Shown in pieces: positions 1 through 17,378 of a stretch of DNA of 53,132 nucleotides. Position numbers and translations under genes: made by a program. Source of the DNA: Pseudomonadales bacterium (GTDB lineage Bacteria; Pseudomonadota; Gammaproteobacteria; Pseudomonadales; Azotimanducaceae); assembly GCA_047920935.1 (NCBI GenBank), contig JBLRXD010000001.1, positions 8,885 through 62,016 on the forward strand. Reading direction: 5' to 3'. Positions within the stretch are counted from its first letter, which is position 1. Each line of letters opens with the position of its first letter. The notes below the pieces were generated by a model. That model was not told the origin of the DNA. It worked only from the letters and a program-made list of their open reading frames with translations, and ran no database searches.

Positions 1-89
1 AGAGCAGCGCCTACGTCAAGGATCCGCTGCGGAATCTTGCCGCCTGGAACGCCAATCTCCGCAATCGCGACCGGCCGGCGAAAGACTGA
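1..89 (+). CDS. 3' end of an unidentified CDS (partial, enters from the left edge)
   Basis: Frame 3 reads ...SSAYVKDPLRNLAAWNANLRNRDRPAKD then TGA at 87..89. Its composition looks more protein-like than the other two frames. No family was recognised. Confidence 0.3.
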   Translation, partial: SSAYVKDPLRNLAAWNANLRNRDRPAKD

Positions 90-116: not shown

Positions 117-362
117 ATGAACGAGACCATTGGTAAGTTCGGCTATCCGGGCACGCTGATCCACGAGTACGGCCACTGGGTAGTGCTGCTGCGCCCGCAG
201 CAGGTGACCCTGGGATCACTGGTACTGGCTTCGAAGGAGCCCGCCACGGAGTTTCACCAGCTGTCGGCGGCGGGATTCGGCGAGCTGCGTACCGCGGTGA
301 GCGACATCGAGCGCGCCGTGGCCGCAGCCATCCGCGCGCGCTTACGCGCGCACTGGCCATGA
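117..362 (+). pseudogene. HIT-family protein, N-terminal fragment only (histidine-triad part missing)
   Basis: MNETIGKFGYPGTLIHEYGHWVVLLRPQQVTLGSLVLASKEP... matches the N-terminal half of small bacterial HIT proteins as I recall them. After ...DIERAV the sequence becomes AAAIRARLRAHWP and stops. No HxHxH motif follows in any frame. Confidence 0.45.
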
Positions 363-380
363 TCGACCTGCGCTGCGCCC

Positions 381-1403
381 ATGCCTGCGGCTGAGCACAG
401 CGTCGGCCGGGGCGCGCTCGACGCGCTCACCAGCCACAGCCTCGAGGCTCACGGCCACCGCGACGATCCGGCCGTGGCGCGGCTGCTGGCGGAGATCCAT
501 CGGCGCCACGGTGACAAGGTGGCCGCCGTGTTGCTGTACGGCTCCTATCTGCGGGGCAAGCGCGACACCCTGATCGACCTGTACGTGTTGCTCACCGACT
601 TCGACGGTGCGCTGCCGGGGCGCTGGCAGGCGCTGGGCAATCGCAGCCTGCCGCCCAACGTCTATTACCTGTCACTGCAAACCGATCCGCCGGCGGCGCC
701 CACTGCGGGCGCAGACGACGCCGGCGCCGCGGAACCCCAGCGCCAGCAGTCGCAGGCCGCAGTTCGCGCCAAGTATGCGACCCTGTCGCTGGCCCAGTTC
801 GCAAGCGGCATGAACGATTTTCACTGCTATTTCTGGGCCCGCTTCGTCCAGCCAACCGGGCTGGTGTTCGTCCGCGACGAGGTCACCCGCGGCCGCGTGG
901 TGGCGGCCATGGTGAACGCACTGGATACTTTCGCGCATCGCGTCACCCCCACCCTGGGCGAGAGGTTTTCGTCAGCCGATCTGTGGCGATGCGGGTTCGC
1001 GCTCACCTACGCCTGCGAGTTGCGCTCAGAGCATCCCGACGGGATAGCCGCTCTGTACGACCACAACGCCAGCCATTTCGACCAACTGCTGGCCGCCTAC
1101 GCGCAGGCCGATGGCGCGCTGGCCGCCGCAGGCGGCGGTGGCTATCGCGCCGCCTCCGCGGCGGCCGGCAGCCGCGGAGCCAGACTCTCCTGGGCCGTGC
1201 GCCGCAGCCAGGGCAAACTGCTGAGCGTGCTGCGGCTTGTCAAAGCCGCGGGCACCTTCGAAGACCCTCTGGATTACCTGCTGTGGAAGCTGGAGCGCCA
1301 CTCGGGCGTCTACATCGCACCCACCGAACGCCAGCGGCGACGGCCGCTGATCTTCGCCTGGGGCTTGTTGTGGCGGCTGTACCGGCGAGGGGCGTTTCGT
1401 TGA
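381..1403 (+). CDS. nucleotidyltransferase-fold protein, Tam41/Mmp37-like (putative; function unknown)
   Basis: 340-aa ORF starting with ATG. It has the motif LLYGSYLRGKRDTLIDLYVLLTD (GS...ID.., a Tam41-like single-Asp pattern) and an Ala/Pro-rich low-complexity insert. The assignment is by recalled motif only. Confidence 0.45.
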   Translation: MPAAEHSVGRGALDALTSHSLEAHGHRDDPAVARLLAEIHRRHGDKVAAVLLYGSYLRGKRDTLIDLYVLLTDFDGALPGRWQALGNRSLPPNVYYLSLQTDPPAAPTAGADDAGAAEPQRQQSQAAVRAKYATLSLAQFASGMNDFHCYFWARFVQPTGLVFVRDEVTRGRVVAAMVNALDTFAHRVTPTLGERFSSADLWRCGFALTYACELRSEHPDGIAALYDHNASHFDQLLAAYAQADGALAAAGGGGYRAASAAAGSRGARLSWAVRRSQGKLLSVLRLVKAAGTFEDPLDYLLWKLERHSGVYIAPTERQRRRPLIFAWGLLWRLYRRGAFR

Positions 1404-1458: not shown

Positions 1459-2109
1459 CTAGGTTTCGCCAAGCCGGGCAGCGATCTGATCGGCACACTG
1501 ACGGGCTGCGTATTCGATCAAGGCGTCGAGCTTGTGACTGCCATCCTGTCTGATGTCGGACCGATCGATCTGCAGGGTTTTGTCTTCCGACGGGCCTCCG
1601 ACCTTACAAACCTCCTGCCATACCATGCGGCCATTGGACCCGGTCAAGCGCGCATGTGCCCGCAGGATGTACTGGTAGGTCTGCCAGTTCATGGGGCGGT
1701 ATCCGAGCTGGTTCACCTCGGTGAAGACTTCCAGCGTGTCGCGGGCATCCATGCGTACTTCGGCGCGCCTCGACGGAGGCGCAGCCGCATTCGCCACCTC
1801 GCGAAGATTCAGATCGGTTTTCGAGCCCAGGTTGGTTTTCAGACGGCTGGCAATCAGCTCGGACGGACTGGGAAACACTGCGGGAGACCCATCAGGGCGC
1901 GTCAGCCCATCGAGCAGGCCGAGGCCCGTGACGTCGCCCGGCGTGACCACATGCAACCGAGGTTCAGAGTAAACCACGACAGCGATCTCCCGATCGCCGA
2001 ACTCGGAACGCAAGCTGGCGTTGGACACCTCGACGGTTTGCGTCGTGACGCAGGCGCCCAGGGATGCGGTGACCATCGTCAGCAATAGGACGCGGATGGG
2101 GTGATTCAT
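1459..2109 (-). CDS. hypothetical lipoprotein
   Basis: From the internal ATG at 2109 the protein starts MNHPIRVLLLTMVTASLGAC, a signal peptide plus lipobox. The gene lies about 70 nt downstream of spt on the same strand. Confidence 0.6.
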   Translation of the reverse strand: MNHPIRVLLLTMVTASLGACVTTQTVEVSNASLRSEFGDREIAVVVYSEPRLHVVTPGDVTGLGLLDGLTRPDGSPAVFPSPSELIASRLKTNLGSKTDLNLREVANAAAPPSRRAEVRMDARDTLEVFTEVNQLGYRPMNWQTYQYILRAHARLTGSNGRMVWQEVCKVGGPSEDKTLQIDRSDIRQDGSHKLDALIEYAARQCADQIAARLGET

Positions 2110-2179: not shown

Positions 2180-3361
2180 CTATGGCGAGGGGGAGGAGCC
2201 TGTTACCGACCGGAAGCCATCGACGATGGCCTGGATCTGCGCGGGCGTATGCGCGGCGCTGGCGCTGCAGCGCAGCAGGCTGGCGCCGTCTGGCGACGCG
2301 GGTGGCATCATGAGATTGGTATACACGCCCAGGTCGAGCAGCGCCCGCCATGCCTGCAGCGCACGGGCGTGCTCCTCGATGCGCACGGCCACCACCGGGC
2401 TGATCTGCGGGCCGAGGCGCAAGCCGAGAGCTTCAAGCCCGTGGTAGAGCTGGCGCGCGTTGCGCCACAGGGCCTCGCGCAACTGCGGGCTCTCGCGCAT
2501 CCGCCGCAGCGCCATGCGGGTGGTGGCCACCACCGACGGGCACGCTGAAGCGGTGAAGATGTAGGCCCGGCTGGCGAAGCGGAACACGCTCACCTCGTCG
2601 TGCCGGCTGACGCAGAAACCGCCGGTGGAGGCCAGGCTCTTGGAGAAAGTGCCAACGATGAAGTCGACCTGATCGAGCACCCCCGCCTCTTCCGCAACGC
2701 CCCGGCCGTGCGCGCCGAACACCCCCAGGGAATGGGCTTCGTCGACGAACAGATAAGCCCCGTAACGGCTTTTGAGATCGACGATCTCCGCCAGCGGCGC
2801 CTTGTCGCCGAGCACGCTGAACAGCCCTTCGGTAACCACCAGCGTCCGGCTGGTGCGCTCGCCCAGGCGCCGCAAGCGCTTCTCCAGACTCGCCACGTCG
2901 TTGTGCTTGAATACGTAGATGTCTGCGCCGGTCATGCGGCAGCCATCGTAGAGGCTGGCATGGGCGTCCGCGTCCAGCAGCACGCAATCGCCGGGCCCCA
3001 GCAGCGCCGCCAGAGTACCCAGATTGGCCGAGTATCCGGTGGAAAACACCATGGCGTGCGGGCAATCGTAGAACTCCGCCAGCTCCCGCTCCAGCTCCCC
3101 ATGACCTGCGAAATTGCCGTTGGCCATGCGCGAGCCGGTGGTGCCGGTGCCGAGCTCGGCCAGCGCCGCCTGGCCGGCTGCGATGCATGCCGGGTCGAAG
3201 GTCAGGCCGAGATAGTTGTTGGTGCCGGCGAGAATCGTTCGGCGCCCGCCGATCATCGCTTCGGTGGCCGACAGCATGCAATCCATAACCACCCGGGTCG
3301 GATCGGTGCCGGTGGCGCTGAGTTCGTCCCGGCGCTGCCGCAGCGGGCCGAATTTGCTCAT
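2180..3361 (-). CDS. spt: serine palmitoyltransferase (alpha-oxoamine synthase family, PLP-dependent)
   Basis: Start is ATG 3361, 10 nt after the ACP stop. The protein is collinear with Sphingomonas SPT as I recall it: N-terminal SKFGPL..., the PLP lysine in GTFSKSLASTGGF, and C-terminal LLRCSASAAHTPAQIQ. The ORF-track 5' extension overlaps the ACP gene. Confidence 0.9.
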   Translation of the reverse strand: MSKFGPLRQRRDELSATGTDPTRVVMDCMLSATEAMIGGRRTILAGTNNYLGLTFDPACIAAGQAALAELGTGTTGSRMANGNFAGHGELERELAEFYDCPHAMVFSTGYSANLGTLAALLGPGDCVLLDADAHASLYDGCRMTGADIYVFKHNDVASLEKRLRRLGERTSRTLVVTEGLFSVLGDKAPLAEIVDLKSRYGAYLFVDEAHSLGVFGAHGRGVAEEAGVLDQVDFIVGTFSKSLASTGGFCVSRHDEVSVFRFASRAYIFTASACPSVVATTRMALRRMRESPQLREALWRNARQLYHGLEALGLRLGPQISPVVAVRIEEHARALQAWRALLDLGVYTNLMMPPASPDGASLLRCSASAAHTPAQIQAIVDGFRSVTGSSPSP

Positions 3362-3371
3362 GAGGTCGTTG

Positions 3372-3617
3372 TCAGACAAGGCTGCGAACCACCGCGTTGG
3401 CGAGTTGGGAGATGGTCCGGACGTGGGAGAGACTCTCCAGATCCAGCGCGATGTCGTAGTGATCTTCGACTTCCATGACGAACTCCATGACCTGCACCGA
3501 TTCCAGCCCGAGATCGGCGACCATGTCGGTGTCACCGGTCAGTGGCACCGGCTTGCTGAGAAACCCGGCAAGGATTCCGGTGATTTCGGCTTCGGTGACT
3601 GCGGGATCGCGCTTCAA
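3372..3617 (-). CDS. acyl carrier protein (dedicated, sphingolipid-cluster type)
   Basis: 81 aa from TTG 3617, preceded by GGAGA. The phosphopantetheine-attachment motif is DLGLESV. The gene sits between the reductase and spt. Confidence 0.85.
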   Translation of the reverse strand: MKRDPAVTEAEITGILAGFLSKPVPLTGDTDMVADLGLESVQVMEFVMEVEDHYDIALDLESLSHVRTISQLANAVVRSLV

Positions 3618-3667
3618 AATCGTTGATCTCCTCGAAAACTGGCCTGCGGCCCTGCGTTGCAGGCAGG

Positions 3668-4564
3668 TCACAGGGTGGCTGCGCCCTGCGCGAGGCCGAT
3701 CTGCGGCTGCCAGCCCGTGGCGAGCGTGAGCGGACGATTATCACACAGCCAGCTTGCCTGCTGAAGCTCGCGCACCTTGCCAGGGGTAAGCATGGGGGCA
3801 TAGCCAAGCACCCCGGACAGCAGCAGATTGCCGCGGGCCAGGGTGTCGAGCAACCACCGTGGAACCGTGATTCTGGGCACCTGCCGGCCCGCCACGGCGT
3901 CGGCGACTTCGCTCCAGTCGTAGCCGCCGGGCTTCCCGTCGTCGAGCGCGAAGCAGCCATGGCGGCAGGCGGCGGGGTGCTCGAGGCAGGCTGCCACCGC
4001 CCGAGCCAGGTCGTGCACGTGCAGCAGCGCCAGACGCTGATCGGCCGGCCCCGGGCAGACCAGCAGCCCCGCTCGCACCAGCTTCAACAGCGGCCGCAAC
4101 TCCACATCGCCGGGCCCGTAGACGGCCGGCGGCCGCAAGATGCTCCAGCTGATGCCAGCCGAGCCGCGCAGCACGTCTTCGCCGGCGCGCTTGCTGCAGG
4201 CGTAGTCCGACAATTCGGGGCGCTCGGCCGCCAGCGACGACAGCAGCACCAGCTGTGGCGGCACGCTGGCAGCGCCCATTGCCGCTACCAGCGACTCGAC
4301 CCCGGCGACGTTGGCCTGGCGGAAGTCGCCGCCGCTGCGGCCGCGCACCGCTCCAGCCGCGTAGACTGCCGCTGTGACGCCGTCGAGCGCCTGCGCCAAC
4401 GCATCCAGGTCCGTGAGTTCGCCACGGCAGATTTCACAGCGCGGGTCGATGTTGGCGTGGTTTCGGCTGCCGGGACGCAGCAGAACGCGCAGCTGGTAAC
4501 CGCGGTCGAGGAGCACCCGCTGCAGGTGTCGGCCGATGAACCCGCCCGCCCCGGTGAGGAGCAC
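3668..4564 (-). CDS. NAD(P)-dependent epimerase/dehydratase-family reductase (CerR-like 3-keto reductase candidate)
   Basis: Rossmann motif LLTGAGGFIGRHL lies right at the N-terminus, and the catalytic YxxxK is in SDYACSKRAGE. The start is uncertain: GTG 4564 or TTG 4585. The 556-aa ORF-track model overlaps the FAAL gene and is rejected. Confidence 0.7.
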   Translation of the reverse strand: MLLTGAGGFIGRHLQRVLLDRGYQLRVLLRPGSRNHANIDPRCEICRGELTDLDALAQALDGVTAAVYAAGAVRGRSGGDFRQANVAGVESLVAAMGAASVPPQLVLLSSLAAERPELSDYACSKRAGEDVLRGSAGISWSILRPPAVYGPGDVELRPLLKLVRAGLLVCPGPADQRLALLHVHDLARAVAACLEHPAACRHGCFALDDGKPGGYDWSEVADAVAGRQVPRITVPRWLLDTLARGNLLLSGVLGYAPMLTPGKVRELQQASWLCDNRPLTLATGWQPQIGLAQGAATL

Positions 4565-4596
4565 CCGGCTCGGCTGCCGAGGCAAGCGCCGGGCCG

Positions 4597-6351
4597 TCAG
4601 CCAGCGGCCACGCGCGACCGCCGGTTGCGATCTTCCAGCGCCACCCGCAGCAGGAAGTCTTCGCGGGTGCGGGAGCGGGCCAGCTTGCCGGAAGAGGTAC
4701 GCGGCAGGGCGCCGGAGGGAACCAGGTCGATGAAGGCGCTGACGCCGAAGTGGCGGCGCACCGCGCCCTCGAGCTCCGCGACCAACGCGAGTCGTTTGGC
4801 CTCGTCCTGCTCGCGGCATTCCACCACCAGCACGGCAAGATCTTCCCCATTGGGCGAGGGCGCCGCGAACGCCGAGACGTTGCCCTGGCGCACCCCGGGG
4901 AGGTCGTCCGCCAGATGCTCCAGATCCTGGGGCCAGATGTTGCGGCCGTTGATGATGATGACGTCTTTGCTGCGGGCGGTGACGAACAAGCGTCGGCCGA
5001 TTCGATAGCCGATATCGCCGGTGTCGAGCCAGCCGTCCTCGGACAGCACCTCGAGGGTCGCCGCCGGGTCCTGAAAGTAACCGCGCATGACACTCGGGCC
5101 GCGCAGGCAGATGCGCCCGCAATGGCGATCGGCGAGCTCCTCGCCGTCGGGGCCGCGAATGGCCAGCTCGTAACTGCCCAGCACTTCGCCGCAATCGACG
5201 AACTCCAGCACCGCCTCGCTGCCAGGCTCGGCTGCCGGACGCGGCTCGGCGAGCAGTTCCTGCGCCATGCGCAGCTTGTCCACCTGATCCACCAGGAAGC
5301 CGCTGCCCAGCGAGGCGAAGCTTACCGCGAGAGCGCACTCGGCCATGCCGTAGCAGGGCACGAAGCTGGCGGGATCGAAGCCCGTGGACGCCAGAGAGCT
5401 GGCGAACTCGCGCAGAGCCTTGGGTTGGATGCGCTCGGCACCGACGCAGGCAGCGCGCCAGCAGGAGAGATCGTAGCGCTCGGTGTCAGACGGCCGCAGC
5501 CGCTTGGCGCACAGGGCGTAACCGAACGGCGGGCTGGAGGACACCGTACCGCGATTTTCCGAGATGATCTTCAGCCACAGCCGCGGACGCATGGCGAAAG
5601 TGCGCGGGTTGAGCAGATCGACGGACAGCTGCGTCGCCACGGGCAGCAGCACGAAGCCCACCAGCCCCATGTCGTGGTACAGCGGCAACCAGGAAACGAA
5701 GCGGTCGGTACGACCCAGGACAAGGCCGGCCTCGGCGATCTCCTGCAGGTTGTTCAATACCGAGGCCTGGGTGATTTCCACACCTCGCGGAAACCGGGTG
5801 CTACCCGAGGTGTACTGCAGATAGGCGGGCTCATCGGACCGCAGGGGCTGCAACGGCACGTCGCTCTCCGGCAGCGCCTGCAGATCTTCGAGGGTGCCCA
5901 CCCACACGCCGCTGAGGCCCTGGGCGGCCTCGCGGAGGAAGCCGATGTGGCTCGGCGGCGCCACGGCCACCTGCGCGGTGCAGCCGTGAAGCATGCGCCG
6001 CAGCTGGCTCACGTATGCATCGTGAGCGCCCAGCTGCACTCCGGCTGGCAACGCTACCGGCAGCAGGCCCGCGTACTGCGAGGCGAAAAATACCTCGTGA
6101 AACATCGGGTCGGTTTCTGCCACGATGGCCACCCGGCTGCCACGTGCGACGCCGAGGCCAAGCAGTTTGCGCCCCAGGGTCTGCGCCTGATCGCGCAACT
6201 GGCGGTAGCCGAGCACGTACTGCAGCTCACCACGACCGTCGTAGAAATTGATGCCCGTCTCGCCGCGCGCCGCGTATTCGAGCGCTTCCACGAGATTGCC
6301 GAAGCCGGAGCTTCGGTATTCCAGGGACTGGTTGATTCCCGTACAGGACAA
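4597..6351 (-). CDS. fatty acyl-AMP ligase / acyl-ACP synthetase (adenylate-forming)
   Basis: 584 aa. The start is TTG 6351 with GGGAGA 9 nt upstream. The AMP-binding motif is [15 protein letters not shown], and the overall architecture is FAAL-type. Confidence 0.85.
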
Positions 6352-6431: not shown

Positions 6432-6437
6432 ATTATA
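6432..6437 (-). promoter_or_regulatory. candidate -10 hexamer (TATAAT) for the FAAL-spt operon
   Basis: A perfect TATAAT on the minus strand lies about 80 nt upstream of the FAAL start, in a locally AT-richer stretch. No convincing -35 was found. Confidence 0.25.
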
Positions 6438-6615
6438 ACCAACTGTGGGATCAGATGTAGAGTCCAAAAACACTGTCTCAACTTCATGATTTCCGCCGTG
6501 TTTTGCCCCTTCGGAAGCGCCGCTGGCGACCGTAGCGGGGGCTGTTGAGCCCGCCGCGCGGGCGCAACGGATGCGAAACATGTACTACATTGAGTGCAAA
6601 CGCCAGACACGAATA

Positions 6616-7137
6616 ATGCCAGAATCGACTATCTGCACCAGCTTCACCCTTACCTTGCAAGAACGGGAACCGTCATTGAGCAAAGTCTTCAGACCGGCGC
6701 GACACCGCCCGGCGGCCTATCGACAATACCTTCGCCCGAGCCTCCGCGGGCTGTTGTTGGCCGGCTGCGCGCTGTTGGCCGGATGTCAGTCCATGAGCCG
6801 ACAGGAGCTCGCCTGGCAGGCGCTGCACGCCGTCGACGTGCTGCAGACGCTCGAAGCAGCCCGGGACCCCTGCTACAAAGAGGACGCCTGGCTGACCCAG
6901 CGACTCATCGGCAAGCAACCGAGCGATGCCGCCGTGCTCGCCTGGGGCGCCGGCAGCGCCGTGTTTCATGCCTGGGTGACGCACACCCTGGACCAGCGTG
7001 GCGCCCCTTCCTGGGTGCAGATGGTTTGGGATCTGGGCACACTGGGGCAAACTGCCTACGCCGTCGGCTCGAATCACCGCACCGGCATCCGGCTGTTTCG
7101 CAGCAACAAAACGGTACCCGGCTGCTTCCCTTCCTGA
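6616..7137 (+). CDS. hypothetical lipoprotein
   Basis: Contains ...RGLLLAGCALLAGCQS (lipobox). The start is uncertain: candidates are 6571, ATG 6616, or TTG at LSKVF. No family was recognised. Confidence 0.45.
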   Translation: MPESTICTSFTLTLQEREPSLSKVFRPARHRPAAYRQYLRPSLRGLLLAGCALLAGCQSMSRQELAWQALHAVDVLQTLEAARDPCYKEDAWLTQRLIGKQPSDAAVLAWGAGSAVFHAWVTHTLDQRGAPSWVQMVWDLGTLGQTAYAVGSNHRTGIRLFRSNKTVPGCFPS

Positions 7138-7174
7138 CGATGACGGGGCGTCCGCAGCGGCACTGAGCAAGCTC

Positions 7175-7711
7175 GTGGCAGAACTGTTCGAAACCTTCGA
7201 CGACGCCGGCCGCAGCGCCGGCCTGGTGCCGCGAGACCAGGTGCACGCCCGCGGCCTGTGGCACAAGTCGGCACACGTGTTCCTGTTCACCAGCGACGGC
7301 CGGCTGTACCTGCAGCGCCGGGCGGCCGGCAAGGATCTGTTTCCCGGGCGCTGGGACTTCAGCGTCGGCGAGCATCTTCAGCCCGCAGAGAGCTACCTCG
7401 ATGGCGCGCTGCGCGGGCTCGCCGAAGAACTCGGCGTCAGCGGCGTGGCTCTGGAGCCCATGAGCGGGGTGCGCCGCTGGCAGTACCGGCTGCCCGAACT
7501 CGGGATCGCGGATCGGGAACTGCAGCAGGCGTTTCGCGGCTGCTACGACGGGCCGATCTTTCCGGACCCGCAGGAAGTTGCCGAGGTGCGAGCTCTCGCC
7601 CCGATCGAGGTTGCCGCCTGGCTCGAGCGCAGCCCTGACGACTTTACTCCGTGGTTCGCTGCCGAGCTCCACGCCTTCGAGCTCGACCGGCCTCCGTCGA
7701 CTCGACCTTGA
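7175..7711 (+). CDS. NUDIX hydrolase
   Basis: Nudix box GEHLQPAESYLDGALRGLAEELG. There is no in-frame ATG. GTG 7175 gives MAELFETFDDAGRSAGLVPRDQVH, a typical N-terminus for this family. Confidence 0.75.
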   Translation: MAELFETFDDAGRSAGLVPRDQVHARGLWHKSAHVFLFTSDGRLYLQRRAAGKDLFPGRWDFSVGEHLQPAESYLDGALRGLAEELGVSGVALEPMSGVRRWQYRLPELGIADRELQQAFRGCYDGPIFPDPQEVAEVRALAPIEVAAWLERSPDDFTPWFAAELHAFELDRPPSTRP

Positions 7712-10976: not shown

Positions 10977-12383
10977 TTGCGAACGCTGGTCTGGTTGCGC
11001 AACGATCTGCGGGTGGCCGACAACCCGGCACTGTCGAGCGCCATGGAGGCGGGTGAGGCGGTGGCCGTGTTCTGCATCTGCGCGCGCCAATGGCGTGCTC
11101 ATGATGTCGGCGACAACCGGCTGGGGTTCCTGCTCGACAGCCTGCATGGCCTCGCCGCCGAGCTGGGGCGCCTGGGGGTGCCGCTGCGCATCATCACCGA
11201 ACCGTGGTTCGCCGACGTGCCGCGACGCCTGGTCAAGCTCGCCACCGAACTGGGCGCCGGCGCACTGGTGTGTAACGACGAGTATCCGTTGAACGAGCAG
11301 CTGCGGGATGCCCAGGTCGCTCGCGCCTGCGCCGACGCCGGCATCGCCATGCACATGCACCACGCCGGCACGCTGCTGCCGCCAGGCGCAGTGCTTACCC
11401 AGAGCGGCGAACCGTACACCGTGTTCAGCCCCTTCAAAAAACGCTGGATGTCCCGGCTCGAGCCGGCAGGCTATGAGCCGCTGGCGGTGCCGCGGCGCCA
11501 GCGGCGGCCCTCGGTTGCGGATTCGCCCCTGCCGCAACGGCTCGACGGCGTGGCCCGGGATCAGGTCGAGGGACGCTGGCCCGGAGGCCCTGCGGAAGCC
11601 CAGCGACGACTGCAGGAGTTCGTCAGCGATCGGGTGCTGCGCTACCACCAGGACCGCGACTTTCCCGCTCTCGACGGCACCAGCACGCTATCCCCGTACC
11701 TGGCCGTCGGCAGCATCTCGGCTCGCCAGTGCCTGCACGCCGCGGTGCAGGCCAACGGCGGCAGCCTGCACAGCGGCTCACCCGGCGTGCTGGCCTGGAT
11801 CAACGAGCTCGTCTGGCGTGACTTTTACCGCCACGTCGTGGCCCACTTCCCCCACGTCAGCCGCGGCCGCGCCTTCCGCCGCGAGATGGACGCCATGCCC
11901 TGGCGTCACGCTCCTGCCGAATACCAAGCCTGGAAGGCCGGCCGCACCGGGTATCCGCTGGTAGACGCGGCCATGCGACAACTGGCCGAGACCGGCTGGA
12001 TGCACAACCGGCTGCGCATGGTGACCGCCATGTTTCTGAGCAAGCACCTGCTGCTGGATTGGCGCCTCGGCGAGCGCCACTTCATGAACCTGCTGGTGGA
12101 CGGCGACTTCGCCGCCAACAACGGCGGCTGGCAATGGAGCGCGGCCACCGGCACCGATGCCGCGCCCTACTTCCGGATCTTCAATCCCGTCACCCAGGCA
12201 CAGCGTTTCGACCCCCAAGGCACGTTCGTCCGCCGCTACGTAGCGGAATTGCGCGAAGCGCCGTTGCCTGCGGTGCTCGATCCGGCAAAGCACGGCTTTG
12301 TGGGCTACCCGCGCCCCATGGTCGATCACAGGGCCGCCCGGCAGCGGGCGCTCGACAGCTTCAAGGCGCTGCGCCGCGGCTGA
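10977..12383 (+). CDS. phrB: deoxyribodipyrimidine photolyase
   Basis: The start TTG 10977 lies 4 nt after the response-regulator stop. The N-terminus is RTLVWLRNDLRVADNPAL and the C-terminal FAD-binding region contains WMHNRLRMVTAMFL...GGWQW. Confidence 0.9.
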   Translation: MRTLVWLRNDLRVADNPALSSAMEAGEAVAVFCICARQWRAHDVGDNRLGFLLDSLHGLAAELGRLGVPLRIITEPWFADVPRRLVKLATELGAGALVCNDEYPLNEQLRDAQVARACADAGIAMHMHHAGTLLPPGAVLTQSGEPYTVFSPFKKRWMSRLEPAGYEPLAVPRRQRRPSVADSPLPQRLDGVARDQVEGRWPGGPAEAQRRLQEFVSDRVLRYHQDRDFPALDGTSTLSPYLAVGSISARQCLHAAVQANGGSLHSGSPGVLAWINELVWRDFYRHVVAHFPHVSRGRAFRREMDAMPWRHAPAEYQAWKAGRTGYPLVDAAMRQLAETGWMHNRLRMVTAMFLSKHLLLDWRLGERHFMNLLVDGDFAANNGGWQWSAATGTDAAPYFRIFNPVTQAQRFDPQGTFVRRYVAELREAPLPAVLDPAKHGFVGYPRPMVDHRAARQRALDSFKALRRG

Positions 12384-12461
12384 ACCGCTGCGAGTGTTGC
12401 ATCAGGCGCCACCGGAGTAGTATTTGCGCTGCGTCAATTCGGTCTGTCGACGGGGAGCCTC

Positions 12462-13046
12462 ATGGAAGCTGCAAACATCCAATCCGTGCCAGCCAGCCAG
12501 CGAGGCAAAGTGATACCCACCATCGTCCTGGCGTTCGCCGCCGATCCGCTGGTGCGCTGGCTGTGGCCAGACGCCGGCGCCTACCTCGGCGCCATGCCGG
12601 AACTCACCGTCGCCTTTGCTGGGGGCGCATTCGACCACGGTAGCGCCTTCTGCAACGCGGATTACTCCGCCGCCGCACTGTGGCTGCCCCCCCAGATCAG
12701 CCCCGACAGCGAAACCCTCGGCGCCCTGGTGCAGCGCACGGTGGCGCCTGAGACCCTGGCGGAGATGGCCGGCGTGTCGGAGCAGATGGCCGAGCACCAC
12801 CCGGATGAACCCCACTGGTACCTGCCGCTCATCGGTGTGGATCCGGCCCGGCAGGGCCGTGGCCAGGGCGCCGCGCTGATGAAGCACGCGCTGCGCCGGT
12901 TCGATGCGGATGGCGCCGTGGCGTATCTGGAATCCACCAACCCGCGCAACATCTCCCTGTATGAGCGCCACGGCTTCGAAGCCGTGGGCCGCATCCAGGC
13001 CGGGTCGTCGCCGGTCATCGTGCCCATGCTGCGCCAGCCGAGTTGA
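12462..13046 (+). CDS. GNAT-family N-acetyltransferase
   Basis: Acetyl-CoA-binding-like motif RQGRGQGAALMKHAL. GGGGAG lies upstream of the ATG. Confidence 0.75.
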   Translation: MEAANIQSVPASQRGKVIPTIVLAFAADPLVRWLWPDAGAYLGAMPELTVAFAGGAFDHGSAFCNADYSAAALWLPPQISPDSETLGALVQRTVAPETLAEMAGVSEQMAEHHPDEPHWYLPLIGVDPARQGRGQGAALMKHALRRFDADGAVAYLESTNPRNISLYERHGFEAVGRIQAGSSPVIVPMLRQPS

Positions 13047-13156
13047 GGCGGAACTGCAGATCTCGCCATGTCTCAGGTGATCTTCGCAACCGCGCGCCTG
13101 AGATGCTGCAGGGCGTTGGATTCCTTGTCTTACATGCCTGTCCGCCGGAGCCGATC

Positions 13157-13447
13157 ATGATCCTGGAACTCGCCACGCTCGACGTCATACCAGGCAGGGA
13201 GGAAGAATTCGAAGCCGCTTTCGCCGGCGCCCAGAGCATCATCGCCTCGATGCCCGGCTACCTCGACCATGAGTTGCAGAGCTGTGTGGAAAACCCGGGG
13301 CGCTATGTCCTGCTGGTGCGCTGGGCGCGCCTCGAAGATCACACCATGGGATTCCGCGGTTCCCCTCAGTATCAGCAGTGGAAGGCGCTGCTGCACCACT
13401 TCTACCATCCATTTCCTCTGGTGGAGCATTACGAGAGGATCCTCTAG
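13157..13447 (+). CDS. antibiotic-biosynthesis-monooxygenase (ABM) domain protein
   Basis: 96 aa from ATG 13157, with GGAG 6 nt upstream. The sequence MILELATLDVIPGREEEFEAAF...LLVRWARLEDH is typical of the ABM fold. Confidence 0.75.
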   Translation: MILELATLDVIPGREEEFEAAFAGAQSIIASMPGYLDHELQSCVENPGRYVLLVRWARLEDHTMGFRGSPQYQQWKALLHHFYHPFPLVEHYERIL

Positions 13448-13542
13448 CCCAGCAGAACGGCTCATGTCGCTGCCGTTCACGCAGCTTTCACCGATACCTG
13501 GCTACCTTGAGCAGGTAATCAACGTCATCGGAAAGCCAGCAC

Positions 13543-14490
13543 ATGAGCACAATGCAAGCCCTCCTCGCCCTGATGCCCGACATCGCCGGGCGCCCGCACG
13601 CCAAACCCCAGGGCACACTCGACTGGGTGGGCATGAGCGACATCCATCAGCCCATCCTGGTGCGAGACGGCAGCGAGGAGCAGCGCGTCCAGGCGAACGT
13701 GCAGGTCTATGTGGATCTCAACGATCCTCACGCCAAAGGCATTCACATGTCGCGGCTGTACCTGCTGCTCGACGAGCACGCCCGCACCCGGCCGCTGTCG
13801 GTGGCGGGGCTGAAGATGCTGCTCAGTGCCCTGTACGGCTCTCATGCCGATCTCAGCACCCGAGCTTTCGTGCAGTTCGACTTCAACTTCGAACTGCGCC
13901 AGGCGGCCTTGCTCTCCGACAACGCCGGCTGGGCTTCCTATCCGGTCACCCTCAAGGGCAGCTGGGTCGACGGCGAGATGCAGATCGAACTCGGCGTGCG
14001 CGTCACCTATTCCAGCACCTGCCCTTGCTCGGCCGCTCTAGCCCGCCAGCTGATTCAGCGAGCTTTTGCCGAGCGTTTCGGTTCCCAGGCGGACATGAGT
14101 TTCGAGGACGTCAGCGCCTGGCTCGGCACCGAGCAGGGAATCCTCGCCACGCCGCACAGTCAGCGCAGCTTCGCCATCGCCAAAGTGGCACTGGCCGATC
14201 ACGTGCGCGACCTGCCGCTACGGTCGCTCATCGAGGGGCTGGAGGGTGCCCTGGGCACGCCGGTGCAGACCGCGGTGAAGCGCGAGGATGAGCAGGAATT
14301 CGCCCGGTTGAACGGCGAAAACCTGATGTTCTGTGAAGATGCCGGGCGCAAGCTGCAGGCGGCGCTGGATCGGGATGATCGCTTCAGCGATTTCTGGGTG
14401 CGCATCGAGCACCACGAAAGCCTGCACGCTCACAATGCCGTCGCCATCGTCACCAAAGGCGTCGACGGCGGGTTCCTGCCGACCCCCTGA
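13543..14490 (+). CDS. folE2: GTP cyclohydrolase I type 2 (FolE2/MptA family)
   Basis: 315 aa with ...DPHAKGIHMSRLY..., YSSTCPCSAAL, ...MFCEDAGRKL... and ESLHAHNAVA, motifs characteristic of FolE2. Confidence 0.85.
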   Translation: MSTMQALLALMPDIAGRPHAKPQGTLDWVGMSDIHQPILVRDGSEEQRVQANVQVYVDLNDPHAKGIHMSRLYLLLDEHARTRPLSVAGLKMLLSALYGSHADLSTRAFVQFDFNFELRQAALLSDNAGWASYPVTLKGSWVDGEMQIELGVRVTYSSTCPCSAALARQLIQRAFAERFGSQADMSFEDVSAWLGTEQGILATPHSQRSFAIAKVALADHVRDLPLRSLIEGLEGALGTPVQTAVKREDEQEFARLNGENLMFCEDAGRKLQAALDRDDRFSDFWVRIEHHESLHAHNAVAIVTKGVDGGFLPTP

Positions 14491-14500
14491 AGCCGCCACC

Positions 14501-15787
14501 TCAGCCGACGAAGCGCACCTCGATGGTGGTGCCTTCGCCGGGGCGGCTGTGGGCGGAGATCGTCCAGCCGAACTGTCGTACCAGGCGCTTGACGATGGCC
14601 AGCCCGAGCCCGTGTCCGCGCGTCAGCCCGCGACTTTCGTCAGCTCGGTAGAACGGGTCGAACGCGCGTTCCAGCTCCTCTCCCGACATGCCGATGCCGG
14701 TGTCCGCGACCCGCACGCTGACCGCGGTGACGGTGACATCGACGTTGCCGTCACGCGTGTAGTTGATGGCGTTGCGCAGCAGATTGCCGATGACGATTTC
14801 CACCACCTTGGCCGGGGCGCGCACCTTCAACGCCGCCTGCTCGTGGACGCTCAGCGTATTGCCGGAAGCCTGCACCAGCGGTGACAGCGCGTCCATCTGC
14901 CGCTCCACCAGATCGTTGACGACCACGTCTTCCCGGGGAATTTCCATCTCACTCTCTCGGGCGAGCATCAGCAGGGTCTCGAGCAGTGCTTCCATGTCCT
15001 GCACGGTGCGTCGCATGCGCGCCAGCGCCTTGCGCTCCCCGGGCGGACGGTCCGGGTTTTCTTCCAGCAGATCCAGCGACCCCTTGAACACCGCCACCGG
15101 GGTGCGCAACTCGTGGCCCGCGTCACGGGTGAAGACCCGCTCCCGCTCGACGAACGCCTTGAGGCGGTCGGAGAACGTCGCCACGGCGTTGATCATCGAC
15201 AGCACCTCGGCATCGGCCACCTCCCGCAGCGGGTTCAGATCCACGTGCAGCGTGGTGTCGTGCTCGAAATCGAAGCGTTCGAGCCGATGGGCGAGCTGGA
15301 CGATGGGCGAGATCGCCTGCTGCGACAACCGATAAGCGAGAAACGACAGCCCGTAAATGACAAGCAGAACCACGGCCAACGGGACGATGCCGAAGACGAA
15401 GGCGATCTCGTAGATCTGCGCCTTCGCCCACACCAGATACAGCCGACGGCCGTCACGCTCCGACACATGCACCAGCTGCTCGCCAGCGGCAACGCTGCGC
15501 ACCACTTCATCGGGCGGAATCTCCCGCAGCGGCTCGGGTATGCTGCGCAGATCACCGGCCGGGGCCATGTAGCTGCGCATGTTGGAGGTATCGGGCAGCG
15601 CTGCTGCCGGATCCTGCTCGAGACGCTGCCAGAAATATTCCGCCTCGGTTTCCAGACCTTCGCGCAGCACCAGATCGACGATGATGGTGTTGGCAAAGTA
15701 GATGCCGATGAGGGTGGCAATGCTGATGATGCCCACCTGGATGGCAAAAACCCGAACCAGCTTTGCCCGCAGGCCCTTTCGCTGCAA
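14501..15787 (-). CDS. sensor histidine kinase (two transmembrane segments, periplasmic loop)
   Basis: H-box DAGHELRTPVAV, N-box LLRNAINY, and G-boxes DTGIGM / GHGLGLAIV. The start TTG 15787 lies 33 nt after the cfa stop. Confidence 0.85.
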   Translation of the reverse strand: MQRKGLRAKLVRVFAIQVGIISIATLIGIYFANTIIVDLVLREGLETEAEYFWQRLEQDPAAALPDTSNMRSYMAPAGDLRSIPEPLREIPPDEVVRSVAAGEQLVHVSERDGRRLYLVWAKAQIYEIAFVFGIVPLAVVLLVIYGLSFLAYRLSQQAISPIVQLAHRLERFDFEHDTTLHVDLNPLREVADAEVLSMINAVATFSDRLKAFVERERVFTRDAGHELRTPVAVFKGSLDLLEENPDRPPGERKALARMRRTVQDMEALLETLLMLARESEMEIPREDVVVNDLVERQMDALSPLVQASGNTLSVHEQAALKVRAPAKVVEIVIGNLLRNAINYTRDGNVDVTVTAVSVRVADTGIGMSGEELERAFDPFYRADESRGLTRGHGLGLAIVKRLVRQFGWTISAHSRPGEGTTIEVRFVG

Positions 15788-15820
15788 CGTCTTCCCCTGC
15801 TCGGCTATGAACGCCGTACC

Positions 15821-16861
15821 CTACCGGACGCGACGCTTGTGGAACAGATAGTGGCACACCAGCCACTCGCTGCCATCCCGGTAGCCGAACAGCTCTTCGC
15901 AGGCCATGAAGAACATCCGCCAGCGCTGCACCCAACGAGCAACCTCCGCGTCGCCGTAAACCGGCTGCAGCGCCTGGGTCACGGCGTCGGCGTTGCAGTC
16001 GAGGTTGTCGAGCCAGGCCCGCGCGGTGCGCCGATAGTTGCTGCCGGATAGACTCCAGCGCCGCTGTATCTGCAGGTCTTCCTGGAAGAACAGCAGGGTG
16101 TCAGCCGCCGGCATCAGCCCGCCGGTGAAAAAGTAGCGCGCCATCCAGTTGGCGTCGCCATGAGCCTCGTACGGGTACAGCAGGTTGCGGTGGCAGAAGA
16201 TGTGCACGAACAATCTGCCGTCGTCATCCAGCCAGCTGGCAATCCGGTTGAGCAGCAGTGCGTAATTGCGCACGTGCTCGAACATCTCCACCGAGATCAC
16301 CCTGTCGAAACGACCGTCGAGCTGCAGGTCGTTGACGTCGGCTGTGAGAACGGTGACGTTCTTCAAGCCGCGTTGTTGCGCCTGCCACTCGATGTAGCAA
16401 CGCTGACCGGCAGAGTTTGACACCGCGGTGAAGGTGCTTCCGGGAAACCGCTCGGCCGCCCACAGCGTGAACGAACCCCAGCCGCAGCCGAGATCCAGCA
16501 CCCGCTGACCGTCGACCAACAGCGCGCGCTGTGCGTAAAGCGCGAGCATCTGATGCTCCGCGGCATCCAGATCGGTCGCGCCGCCGTCCCAGTAGGCGCT
16601 GCTGTACTTGAGGTGGGCGCCGAGCACGAGCCGAAAGAAGTCGGCAGGCACTTCGTAGTGCTGAGCATTGGCGCGATCCGCGTGCAGGGCGATGCTGCTC
16701 GCGGCCAGCTCCGCGAGCAGCCGCTGATAACGCTCGTCCCGCACCTCCGGATTGCTTCCGTGCTCCTCACGGAGGTGCCGCGCGACCAGGCGGCGAATGC
16801 CGACGCGAACCAGCGTGTCGGGGACGTACCTCGACTCCGCCAGATCAATGAGCACGCTCAA
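15821..16861 (-). CDS. cfa: cyclopropane-fatty-acyl-phospholipid synthase family SAM methyltransferase
   Basis: SAM motif VLDLGCGWGSF and ...VISVEMFEHV. TTG 16861 is preceded by AAGGAG. The ORF-track 5' extension overlaps the upstream gene. Confidence 0.85.
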   Translation of the reverse strand: MSVLIDLAESRYVPDTLVRVGIRRLVARHLREEHGSNPEVRDERYQRLLAELAASSIALHADRANAQHYEVPADFFRLVLGAHLKYSSAYWDGGATDLDAAEHQMLALYAQRALLVDGQRVLDLGCGWGSFTLWAAERFPGSTFTAVSNSAGQRCYIEWQAQQRGLKNVTVLTADVNDLQLDGRFDRVISVEMFEHVRNYALLLNRIASWLDDDGRLFVHIFCHRNLLYPYEAHGDANWMARYFFTGGLMPAADTLLFFQEDLQIQRRWSLSGSNYRRTARAWLDNLDCNADAVTQALQPVYGDAEVARWVQRWRMFFMACEELFGYRDGSEWLVCHYLFHKRRVR

Positions 16862-17378
16862 AGTCACTCCTTCGGCGCAGGTTCGGCTGGCTCTCCACGC
16901 GCGACAGGGCGAACACCGCCGCGAACAGCGGCGCCCAGACCAGCGATACCAAAGCCAAATGCCACGGGTCGGCAATGGTCACCGCGCCGAAGCGCTCCCC
17001 AGCGAGATAGCTGAGCGGCGCCGAAGCGCCCGCCAGCAACCCGCCCAGCCAGGGCCGCGCCTTGAACATGGACAAGCTGTGGTTGATGCTCAGGCCGACG
17101 CCGACCCACAGCATGACGATCCACAGCGGCGCGATGCCCGCGCCGGCATAGTCGAGAATCCCGGTGCGTATCCACACGGTATCGATGACGAAGCCGATGC
17201 AGGCCGCCACGCAACCCAGCACCAGATCGTGGTCGCGCGTCCTGCCGAGCAGCGCGAAGACGATCAACGAAGCCACCGCCGCCGCGCCCCACAAATTGCT
17301 GCCCTGCGCGCCACCGAGCACGCAGGCGAACCACGCGGCCTGAAACAGCACCCCGTTGATCAGATTACCGTGACTCAC
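16845..17378 (-). CDS. DUF2878-family membrane protein
   Basis: 177-aa polytopic protein. NGVLFQAAWFACVLGG... resembles DUF2878 proteins that commonly accompany cfa clusters (from memory). Confidence 0.65.
   Translation of the reverse strand: MSHGNLINGVLFQAAWFACVLGGAQGSNLWGAAAVASLIVFALLGRTRDHDLVLGCVAACIGFVIDTVWIRTGILDYAGAGIAPLWIVMLWVGVGLSINHSLSMFKARPWLGGLLAGASAPLSYLAGERFGAVTIADPWHLALVSLVWAPLFAAVFALSRVESQPNLRRRSDFERAH

Follow-up and report, generated by a model that had tools for sequence, protein, structure and literature searches.

The four-gene operon

The DNA considered here (the window, meaning the whole stretch of 53,132 nt from contig JBLRXD010000001.1) belongs to an uncultured gammaproteobacterium of the Pseudomonadales type and carries, at 2180..6351 on the minus strand, four tightly packed co-directional genes. 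They encode, in this order, a fatty acyl-AMP ligase (FAAL), a reductase of the short-chain dehydrogenase/reductase (SDR) type, a dedicated acyl carrier protein (ACP), and an alpha-oxoamine synthase (AOS). Depending on the start codon chosen, 11-32 nt lie between the first two genes and about 50 nt between the next two, and the ACP and AOS genes are either 10 nt apart or overlap by 8 nt, which agrees with the gaps of about 10-50 nt in an earlier reading made from the letters alone (hereafter the sequence-only reading). By the sequences of its products this is the published aasR-cerR-acpR-spt operon, predicted to start the synthesis of sphingolipids (ceramides).

The aasR-type gene (4597..6351, minus strand) encodes a 584-aa fatty acyl-AMP ligase, an acyl-ACP synthetase presumed to load the dedicated ACP. 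Its product scores 718 bits on the NCBIfam model NF006624 ‘fatty acyl-AMP ligase’ (cut-off 600) and is 45% identical to ECD_02851 (AasR_Ec) of E. coli BL21, an enzyme known to acylate its own AcpR (PMC9386255). Among 77 related loci, collected from a scan in which each GTDB species was represented by one genome, a FAAL gene is kept upstream of the reductase gene in 55. The reductase gene (minus strand, 3668..4585 from a TTG start or 3668..4564 from a GTG start) is of the cerR type: its product belongs to the extended-SDR/epimerase family (Pfam Epimerase, 3.5e-24, with NAD_binding_10 matched as well), shows the GxxGxxG and YxxxK motifs as GAGGFIG and YACSK, is encoded between aasR and acpR, and is 38% identical over 298 aa (E = 6e-55) to ECD_02852 of E. 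coli BL21, in which both motifs are conserved. Its role would be the 3-keto reduction of either a long-chain base or an oxidised ceramide. The acpR-type gene (3372..3617, minus strand; Pfam PP-binding, 9e-11) begins at a TTG codon preceded by a GAGGAG ribosome-binding site and encodes 81 aa, the length also called in the closest relative, with the ACP serine located in DLGLESV. The locus thus presents the tripartite AasR/AcpR/Spt arrangement put forward as a criterion in PMC9386255, namely a dedicated ACP gene directly preceding spt together with a FAAL-type acyl-ACP synthetase.

The class of the AOS, encoded on the minus strand by 2180..3361 (ATG, 393 aa) or 2180..3379 (TTG, 399 aa), was judged by the curated NCBIfam equivalog models with their cut-offs and by the ranking of PDB scores. 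It passed the serine palmitoyltransferase (Spt) equivalog model NF047599 with 588 bits (cut-off 500) and stayed below the cut-offs (in parentheses) of the models for BioF (327 bits; 426), Kbl (295; 460), ALAS (235; 339), and CqsA-type synthases (197; 428). The best PDB matches are the enzymes of Sphingomonas wittichii (2x8u, 426 bits) and S. paucimobilis (2jg2, 417 bits), followed by Sphingobacterium SPT (257), Kbl (216), BioF (186 at most), cysteate acyltransferase (180), and CqsA (126). In the alignment to 2jg2 the segments DADAHAS, VDEAHS, GTFSKS and LLRCS find their counterparts, and the equivalents of His159, Asp231, His234, Lys265 and Arg390 of S. paucimobilis are all conserved; these we take to be the PLP-binding lysine and the catalytic His/Asp/His/Arg residues. 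The landmarks that the sequence-only reading had named for Sphingomonas Spt (SKF..PL, GTFSKS, LLRCS..HTPAQIQ) were recovered residue for residue in the same alignment, and its view that the AOS does not resemble BioF or Kbl holds. That reading had also named a placement outside the Spt clade as the outcome that would overturn it; the profile models and the PDB ranking place the protein with Spt. A CqsA/LqsA-type synthase, a cysteate acyltransferase or a BioF/Kbl paralog, with a signal or a sulfonolipid as product, might be considered instead, as all of these share one superfamily with the Aminotran_1_2 fold and the window protein lacks Arg378 of the Sphingomonas enzyme; but with a single equivalog model passed, with PDB scores of this distribution, and with the gene linked to ceramide-specific genes in its relatives, we give this alternative almost no credence. 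By profile and structure-database scores the AOS is Spt, with a predicted serine-condensing activity.

Upstream of the FAAL gene the sequence TCTACA-18-TATAAT (6432..6461, minus strand) agrees at 10 of 12 positions with a sigma-70-like promoter, a match to the consensus only. A terminator scan returned fewer matches than shuffled sequences and is uninformative on the operon boundaries, and the Rfam scan of the window gave no match.

The convergent operon and the ceramide synthase

The closest relative of the window locus is found on three metagenome contigs (L078-L080), where Spt is 89% identical and the DNA 80-83% identical to that of the window. There, past the end of spt and on the opposite strand, lie a homolog of the window gene orf340 (333 aa), a HIT-domain gene (142 aa), and a hydroxylase gene (264 aa), next to these a DAGK_cat kinase (323 aa, CpgB-like), an NTP_transf_3 protein (281 aa) and a 382-aa protein, and at the end an MsbA-like ABC exporter followed by LptG and LptF paralogs. 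By its type and its position next to the bacterial ceramide synthase gene (bCerS, see below), the 281-aa protein appears to be the CC_1153/CofC-like nucleotidyltransferase. NCBIfam has no model for CpgC, bCerS, CpgB or the CC_1153-like nucleotidyltransferase and the PDB entries searched include no relative of CpgD or CpgB, and which of the two nucleotidyltransferase families corresponds to CpgD was decided by Pfam type and gene position only.

The window shows the beginning of this series, all on the plus strand, up to its left edge. Bases 3..89 are the 3' end (28 codons and the stop) of an OlsC/LpxO-type acyl hydroxylase gene, recognised by comparison with L078: the encoded peptide is 82% identical to the C-terminus of the 264-aa Asp_Arg_Hydrox protein, which itself scores 244 bits on the OlsC model. 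As the window opens on the tail of this gene, the sphingolipid locus extends past the left window edge. The HIT-domain gene that follows (117..362) is, by comparison with relatives, a remnant that has undergone an in-frame internal deletion and encodes 81 aa, where the homologs of L078, L002 and L006 have 142-149 aa; the full-length homolog scores 23.1 bits on Pfam HIT (cut-off 21.5). About 61 codons are lost, among them those for the histidine motif HFHVIPR, and the window copy is therefore probably inactive.

The gene orf340 (381..1403, plus strand, 340 aa) is the last of the convergent operon, which we regard as one for head-group synthesis. It is intact and strongly conserved, with an invariant GS...D.D motif (G54, S55, D62, D66), and its product matches no Pfam or NCBIfam family. 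An AlphaFold2 (AF2) model made from 32 homologs (pLDDT 84, pTM 0.83) has as its top Foldseek matches the Tam41 CDP-diacylglycerol (CDP-DAG) synthases 6ig4, 6ig2 and 7ecd, with probability 1.00 and E ~1e-6. In the 77 related loci a homolog lies convergent with spt 46 times, in alpha- as well as gammaproteobacteria: directly adjacent to it in about 30 loci, including four metagenome-assembled genomes (MAGs) of Caulobacterales/Maricaulaceae, and, in about 14 others, at a distance of about 1.2-1.5 kb with a single gene in between. In the four MAGs the next gene is a DAGK-type kinase, as CC_1160 follows CC_1161 in Caulobacter. CC_1161 (CpgC) carries a CDP-DAG-synthase-type InterPro domain (PMC11324152) and is needed for the conversion of ceramide 1-phosphate to ceramide phosphoglycerate (PMC9393093). 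Synteny and predicted fold together suggest that orf340 is the equivalent of this CpgC (CC_1161 / CCNA_01219). We also considered orf340 as a candidate bCerS and rejected it, its predicted fold being that of a Pol-beta/Tam41 nucleotidyltransferase and not the GNAT fold.

The sequence-only reading had seen no ceramide synthase next to the operon and proposed a free sphingoid base or an atypical lipid as the product. The observation stands, as will be seen; the proposal does not, since the window edge cuts the convergent operon, in which L078 has a YghO-type bCerS. Over its full length the 382-aa protein of L078 shares 52% identity with E. coli YghO (E = 3e-145), which in turn corresponds to CC_1154/bCerS of Caulobacter (PMC9386255). 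Because the gene order of the window is collinear with L078 right up to the edge, a bCerS gene is expected to the left of base 1, and its apparent lack is very probably an effect of where the window ends. An operon limited to its core, yielding a free or unconventionally modified long-chain base after bCerS had been lost along with other head-group genes, would fit the missing YghO homolog, the gene loss in this lineage with its crippled HIT gene, and the insertion of an unrelated lipoprotein gene (discussed further on). Against it stand the position of the edge inside an operon that carries bCerS in an 89%-identical relative, with collinear order up to that point, and the intact, strongly conserved CpgC-like gene, which it would make little sense to keep without ceramide; in Caulobacter its equivalent works at a step after ceramide 1-phosphate (PMC9393093). 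We consider such a core-only operon distinctly improbable.

We are, by comparison, highly confident that the window holds the aasR-cerR-acpR-spt operon of the proteobacterial (‘rhodobacterial’) sphingolipid pathway, and that this operon is one half of a larger chromosomal locus. Several points nevertheless weigh against this view. A tblastn search of the 53-kb window found no YghO/bCerS homolog (best E = 0.06), and the gene is placed in this genome, some 3-4 kb left of base 1, by collinearity with L078, from which we infer it. The mobile-loop residue R378 of S. paucimobilis SPT is a Met in the window Spt, a change that is probably not disabling because the same position is Leu in the E. coli BL21 Spt; the latter, 55% identical to the window protein, is experimentally active and yields 3-oxosphinganine (PMC9386255). 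Furthermore, the loci L002, L003, L008 and L009 (71-77% Spt identity) have extra genes inside the convergent operon (at about 12,100-17,300 of each locus), namely a CpgA-like CDP-alcohol phosphatidyltransferase, a CC_1158-like metallophosphoesterase, a second, CpgD-like nucleotidyltransferase and a GMC oxidoreductase, and none of these four is present between orf340, HIT and hydroxylase in the window or L078. Head-group gene content thus varies within the clade, and with head-group genes lost and the HIT gene disabled by its deletion the locus may be under reduction, which leaves the head group uncertain.

Between the two convergent operons lies an insertion of about 800 bp that is specific to the window lineage; L078 lacks this segment and has only 17 nt between spt and the orf340 homolog. 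It contains a lipoprotein gene (1459..2109, minus strand) that starts with an ATG at 2109, 70 nt downstream of the spt stop, and encodes the lipobox LGAC. The sequence-only reading had suggested it as a fifth operon member. It may be co-transcribed with spt, yet neither the 77 related loci nor L078 has a counterpart, and of its homologs (9 in 5.8 billion proteins) those with readable context adjoin unrelated genes, such as redox enzymes, a type I restriction system and an outer-membrane beta-barrel protein gene. The AF2 model, of moderate quality (pLDDT 70), suggests an LptE-like lipoprotein fold, with DUF330/XCC0632, FlgT, LptE and PelC about equal in Foldseek; the Pfam LptE score of 20.5 bits is below the cut-off of 23 and does not place the protein in that family. 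The idea of a conserved, sphingolipid-specific LptE was accordingly dropped, in view of the absence from the 77 loci and the unrelated contexts of the homologs. By these comparisons the gene is best regarded as a lineage-specific insertion and not as a conserved member of the operon.

Distribution, hosts and residence in the lineage

The order FAAL-reductase-ACP-Spt is contiguous in 43 of the 77 related loci, and about 10 more (Halieaceae and a few others) have the FAAL-reductase pair a few kb from ACP-Spt; with the adjacent order kept so often and a split version besides, the four-gene arrangement is not due to chance. More than 45 of the loci are labelled Pseudomonadales, Lysobacterales, Halieaceae (cultured Halioglobus and Mangrovimicrobium among them), Salinisphaeraceae, Chromatiaceae or unclassified Gammaproteobacteria, the gammaproteobacterial ones coming from both MAGs and isolates, while the remainder include Nitrosomonas and several alphaproteobacteria, whose Spt versions are about 48-51% identical to that of the window. 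Throughout alpha-, beta- and gammaproteobacteria, spt has been found always to co-occur with AcpR and AasR (Padilla-Gomez et al., PMC9386255). The host was thought unusual when judged from the letters alone, an opinion that we do not share: the operon has been published for E. coli BL21 (PMC9386255), the corresponding clusters for A. vinelandii and P. luteola (PMC11324152), and plasmids as well as dozens of gammaproteobacterial genomes carry it. The host is thus not very unusual, and its class is documented.

Spt homologs of about 55% identity reside on plasmids of Pseudomonas, Klebsiella, E. coli, Rahnella and Diaphorobacter. On the IncP plasmid pPNP1 of Pseudomonas sp. JS425 (L089, NZ_CP073662.1, 1..12017) a FAAL-epimerase-ACP-Spt block is situated between copies of the insertion sequence (IS) IS5, with an ABC transporter, LptF/G paralogs, a nucleotidyltransferase and an acylglycerol kinase as neighbours. 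From this IS5-flanked block on an IncP plasmid, sphingolipid clusters appear to be mobile among gammaproteobacteria, and horizontal transfer into this class has been proposed (PMC11324152). One could accordingly take the window cluster for a recently acquired island instead of a resident trait of the lineage. This is very unlikely, given an operon GC content of 0.66-0.71 that is the same as that of the window, the lack of any integrase, IS element or tRNA adjoining the window's operon, and its flank: a photolyase, a response regulator, PolB and a NUDIX protein (phr-RR-polB-NUDIX) are common to the window and its relatives down to 71-78% Spt identity, and are identically arranged in L078-L080. 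The window copy is chromosomal and without IS flanks, in contrast to that of pPNP1, and the two Spt proteins are about 56% identical. In the window lineage the cluster thus looks resident and not newly acquired; since the shared flank accompanies the operon to 71-78% Spt identity, any acquisition would predate the diversification of the group.

Two further features of this flank may be recorded. A small open reading frame (6571..7137, plus strand, conserved part 6793..7125) with a lipobox-like LLAGC is divergent from the FAAL gene across an intergenic region of about 440 nt; L002-L008 and L078 have it in the same place, and it matches no family. For the NUDIX protein (6998..7711, plus strand), which is in the flank of several relatives, the best model is isopentenyl-diphosphate isomerase, at 88 bits below the cut-off of 127.

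Predicted product and relation to known systems

In C. crescentus the aasR-cerR-acpR-spt genes are CC_1165-CC_1162, within the ceramide and ceramide-phosphoglycerate locus CC_1168-CC_1152. The likeness to Caulobacter in gene set and order, noted in the sequence-only reading, is borne out by the published loci (PMC9386255, PMC11324152). It also extends beyond the four genes: the equivalent of CpgC (CC_1161) adjoins spt in the window, and the neighbouring operon of L078 has a CpgB-like kinase, a CC_1153-like (CofC-like) nucleotidyltransferase, bCerS and LptF2/G2, the reference genes CC_1161/CpgC, CC_1160/CpgB, CC_1154/bCerS and the LptF2/G2 paralogs being those defined in PMC11324152 and PMC9393093. 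Different from Caulobacter are the absence from L078 of CpgA (the CDP-alcohol phosphatidyltransferase), the CC_1158 phosphoesterase and CpgD, and the addition of the OlsC/LpxO-type hydroxylase, the HIT gene and the MsbA-like ABC exporter; neither LptC2 nor a Wzx-type flippase was seen.

The locus of E. coli BL21(DE3) consists of yghO, a fatty acyl-AMP ligase, an epimerase-family protein, an ACP and Spt (the ECD_02851-02854 cluster, in which PGAP annotates the last as ‘serine palmitoyltransferase’), and then lptG and lptF paralogs. With the window and its relative it shares a gammaproteobacterial host, the order FAAL-epimerase-ACP-spt, a YghO-type bCerS, and LptF/LptG paralogs; it differs in that yghO is divergent and directly upstream, and in that the annotation of the stretch examined lists neither a CpgC-like gene nor one for a DAGK-type kinase. 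A. vinelandii and P. luteola, which we liken to the window by their published description, are Pseudomonadales hosts with a contiguous cluster for biosynthesis and transport (CPG2) (Olea-Ozuna et al., PMC11324152).

On the analogy of these systems, the FAAL (AasR) would adenylate a long-chain fatty acid and load it onto the dedicated ACP (AcpR), and Spt would then form 3-ketodihydrosphingosine by condensing acyl-AcpR and L-serine, CO2 being released. Both the loading of AcpR by AasR and the preference of the Caulobacter, E. coli BL21 and S. wittichii Spt enzymes for acyl-AcpR were demonstrated biochemically (PMC9386255). A YghO-type N-acyltransferase (bCerS) and the SDR reductase (CerR) should yield dihydroceramide, the order of these two steps being disputed in the literature. 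Past base 1, to judge from L078, the convergent operon would supply the acyl hydroxylase, a CpgB-like ceramide kinase, the CofC/CC_1153-like nucleotidyltransferase, bCerS, the MsbA-like ABC exporter and LptF2/LptG2. Such a pathway would most likely lead to an anionic phospho-ceramide destined for the outer membrane; more specifically, we predict as end product a hydroxylated one of the ceramide-phosphoglycerate type that is exported there, and not a free sphingoid base. That the lost head-group genes point to the ceramide-phosphoglycerate type rather than the diphosphoglycerate form is a conjecture, which follows the reasoning applied to Zymomonas in PMC11324152.

With CpgB-, CpgC- and CC_1153-like genes and the hydroxylase kept, CpgA-, CpgD- and CC_1158-like genes lost and the HIT gene inactivated, a phosphosphingolipid head group different from that of Caulobacter could be formed, the product being either built from CDP-ceramide or ceramide-phosphoglycerate only, and the inserted LptE-fold lipoprotein, encoded directly downstream of spt, could have been recruited as an outer-membrane partner in sphingolipid handling. 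This reading as a whole seems to us unlikely.

The operon is already published and can be annotated by machine, and the current picture of the pathway is unchanged. What the present locus adds is small: the reduced set of head-group genes in the window lineage, and the wide distribution of the CpgC-like, Tam41-fold gene, which accompanies spt in 46 of the 77 loci and in both alpha- and gammaproteobacteria. This distribution and the fold match support a role of CpgC already suggested in the literature, the activation of ceramide 1-phosphate with a nucleotide. With this locus one more uncultured Pseudomonadales lineage of soil, sediment or wastewater joins the increasing number of Gram-negative bacteria predicted to place anionic sphingolipids in their outer membrane.

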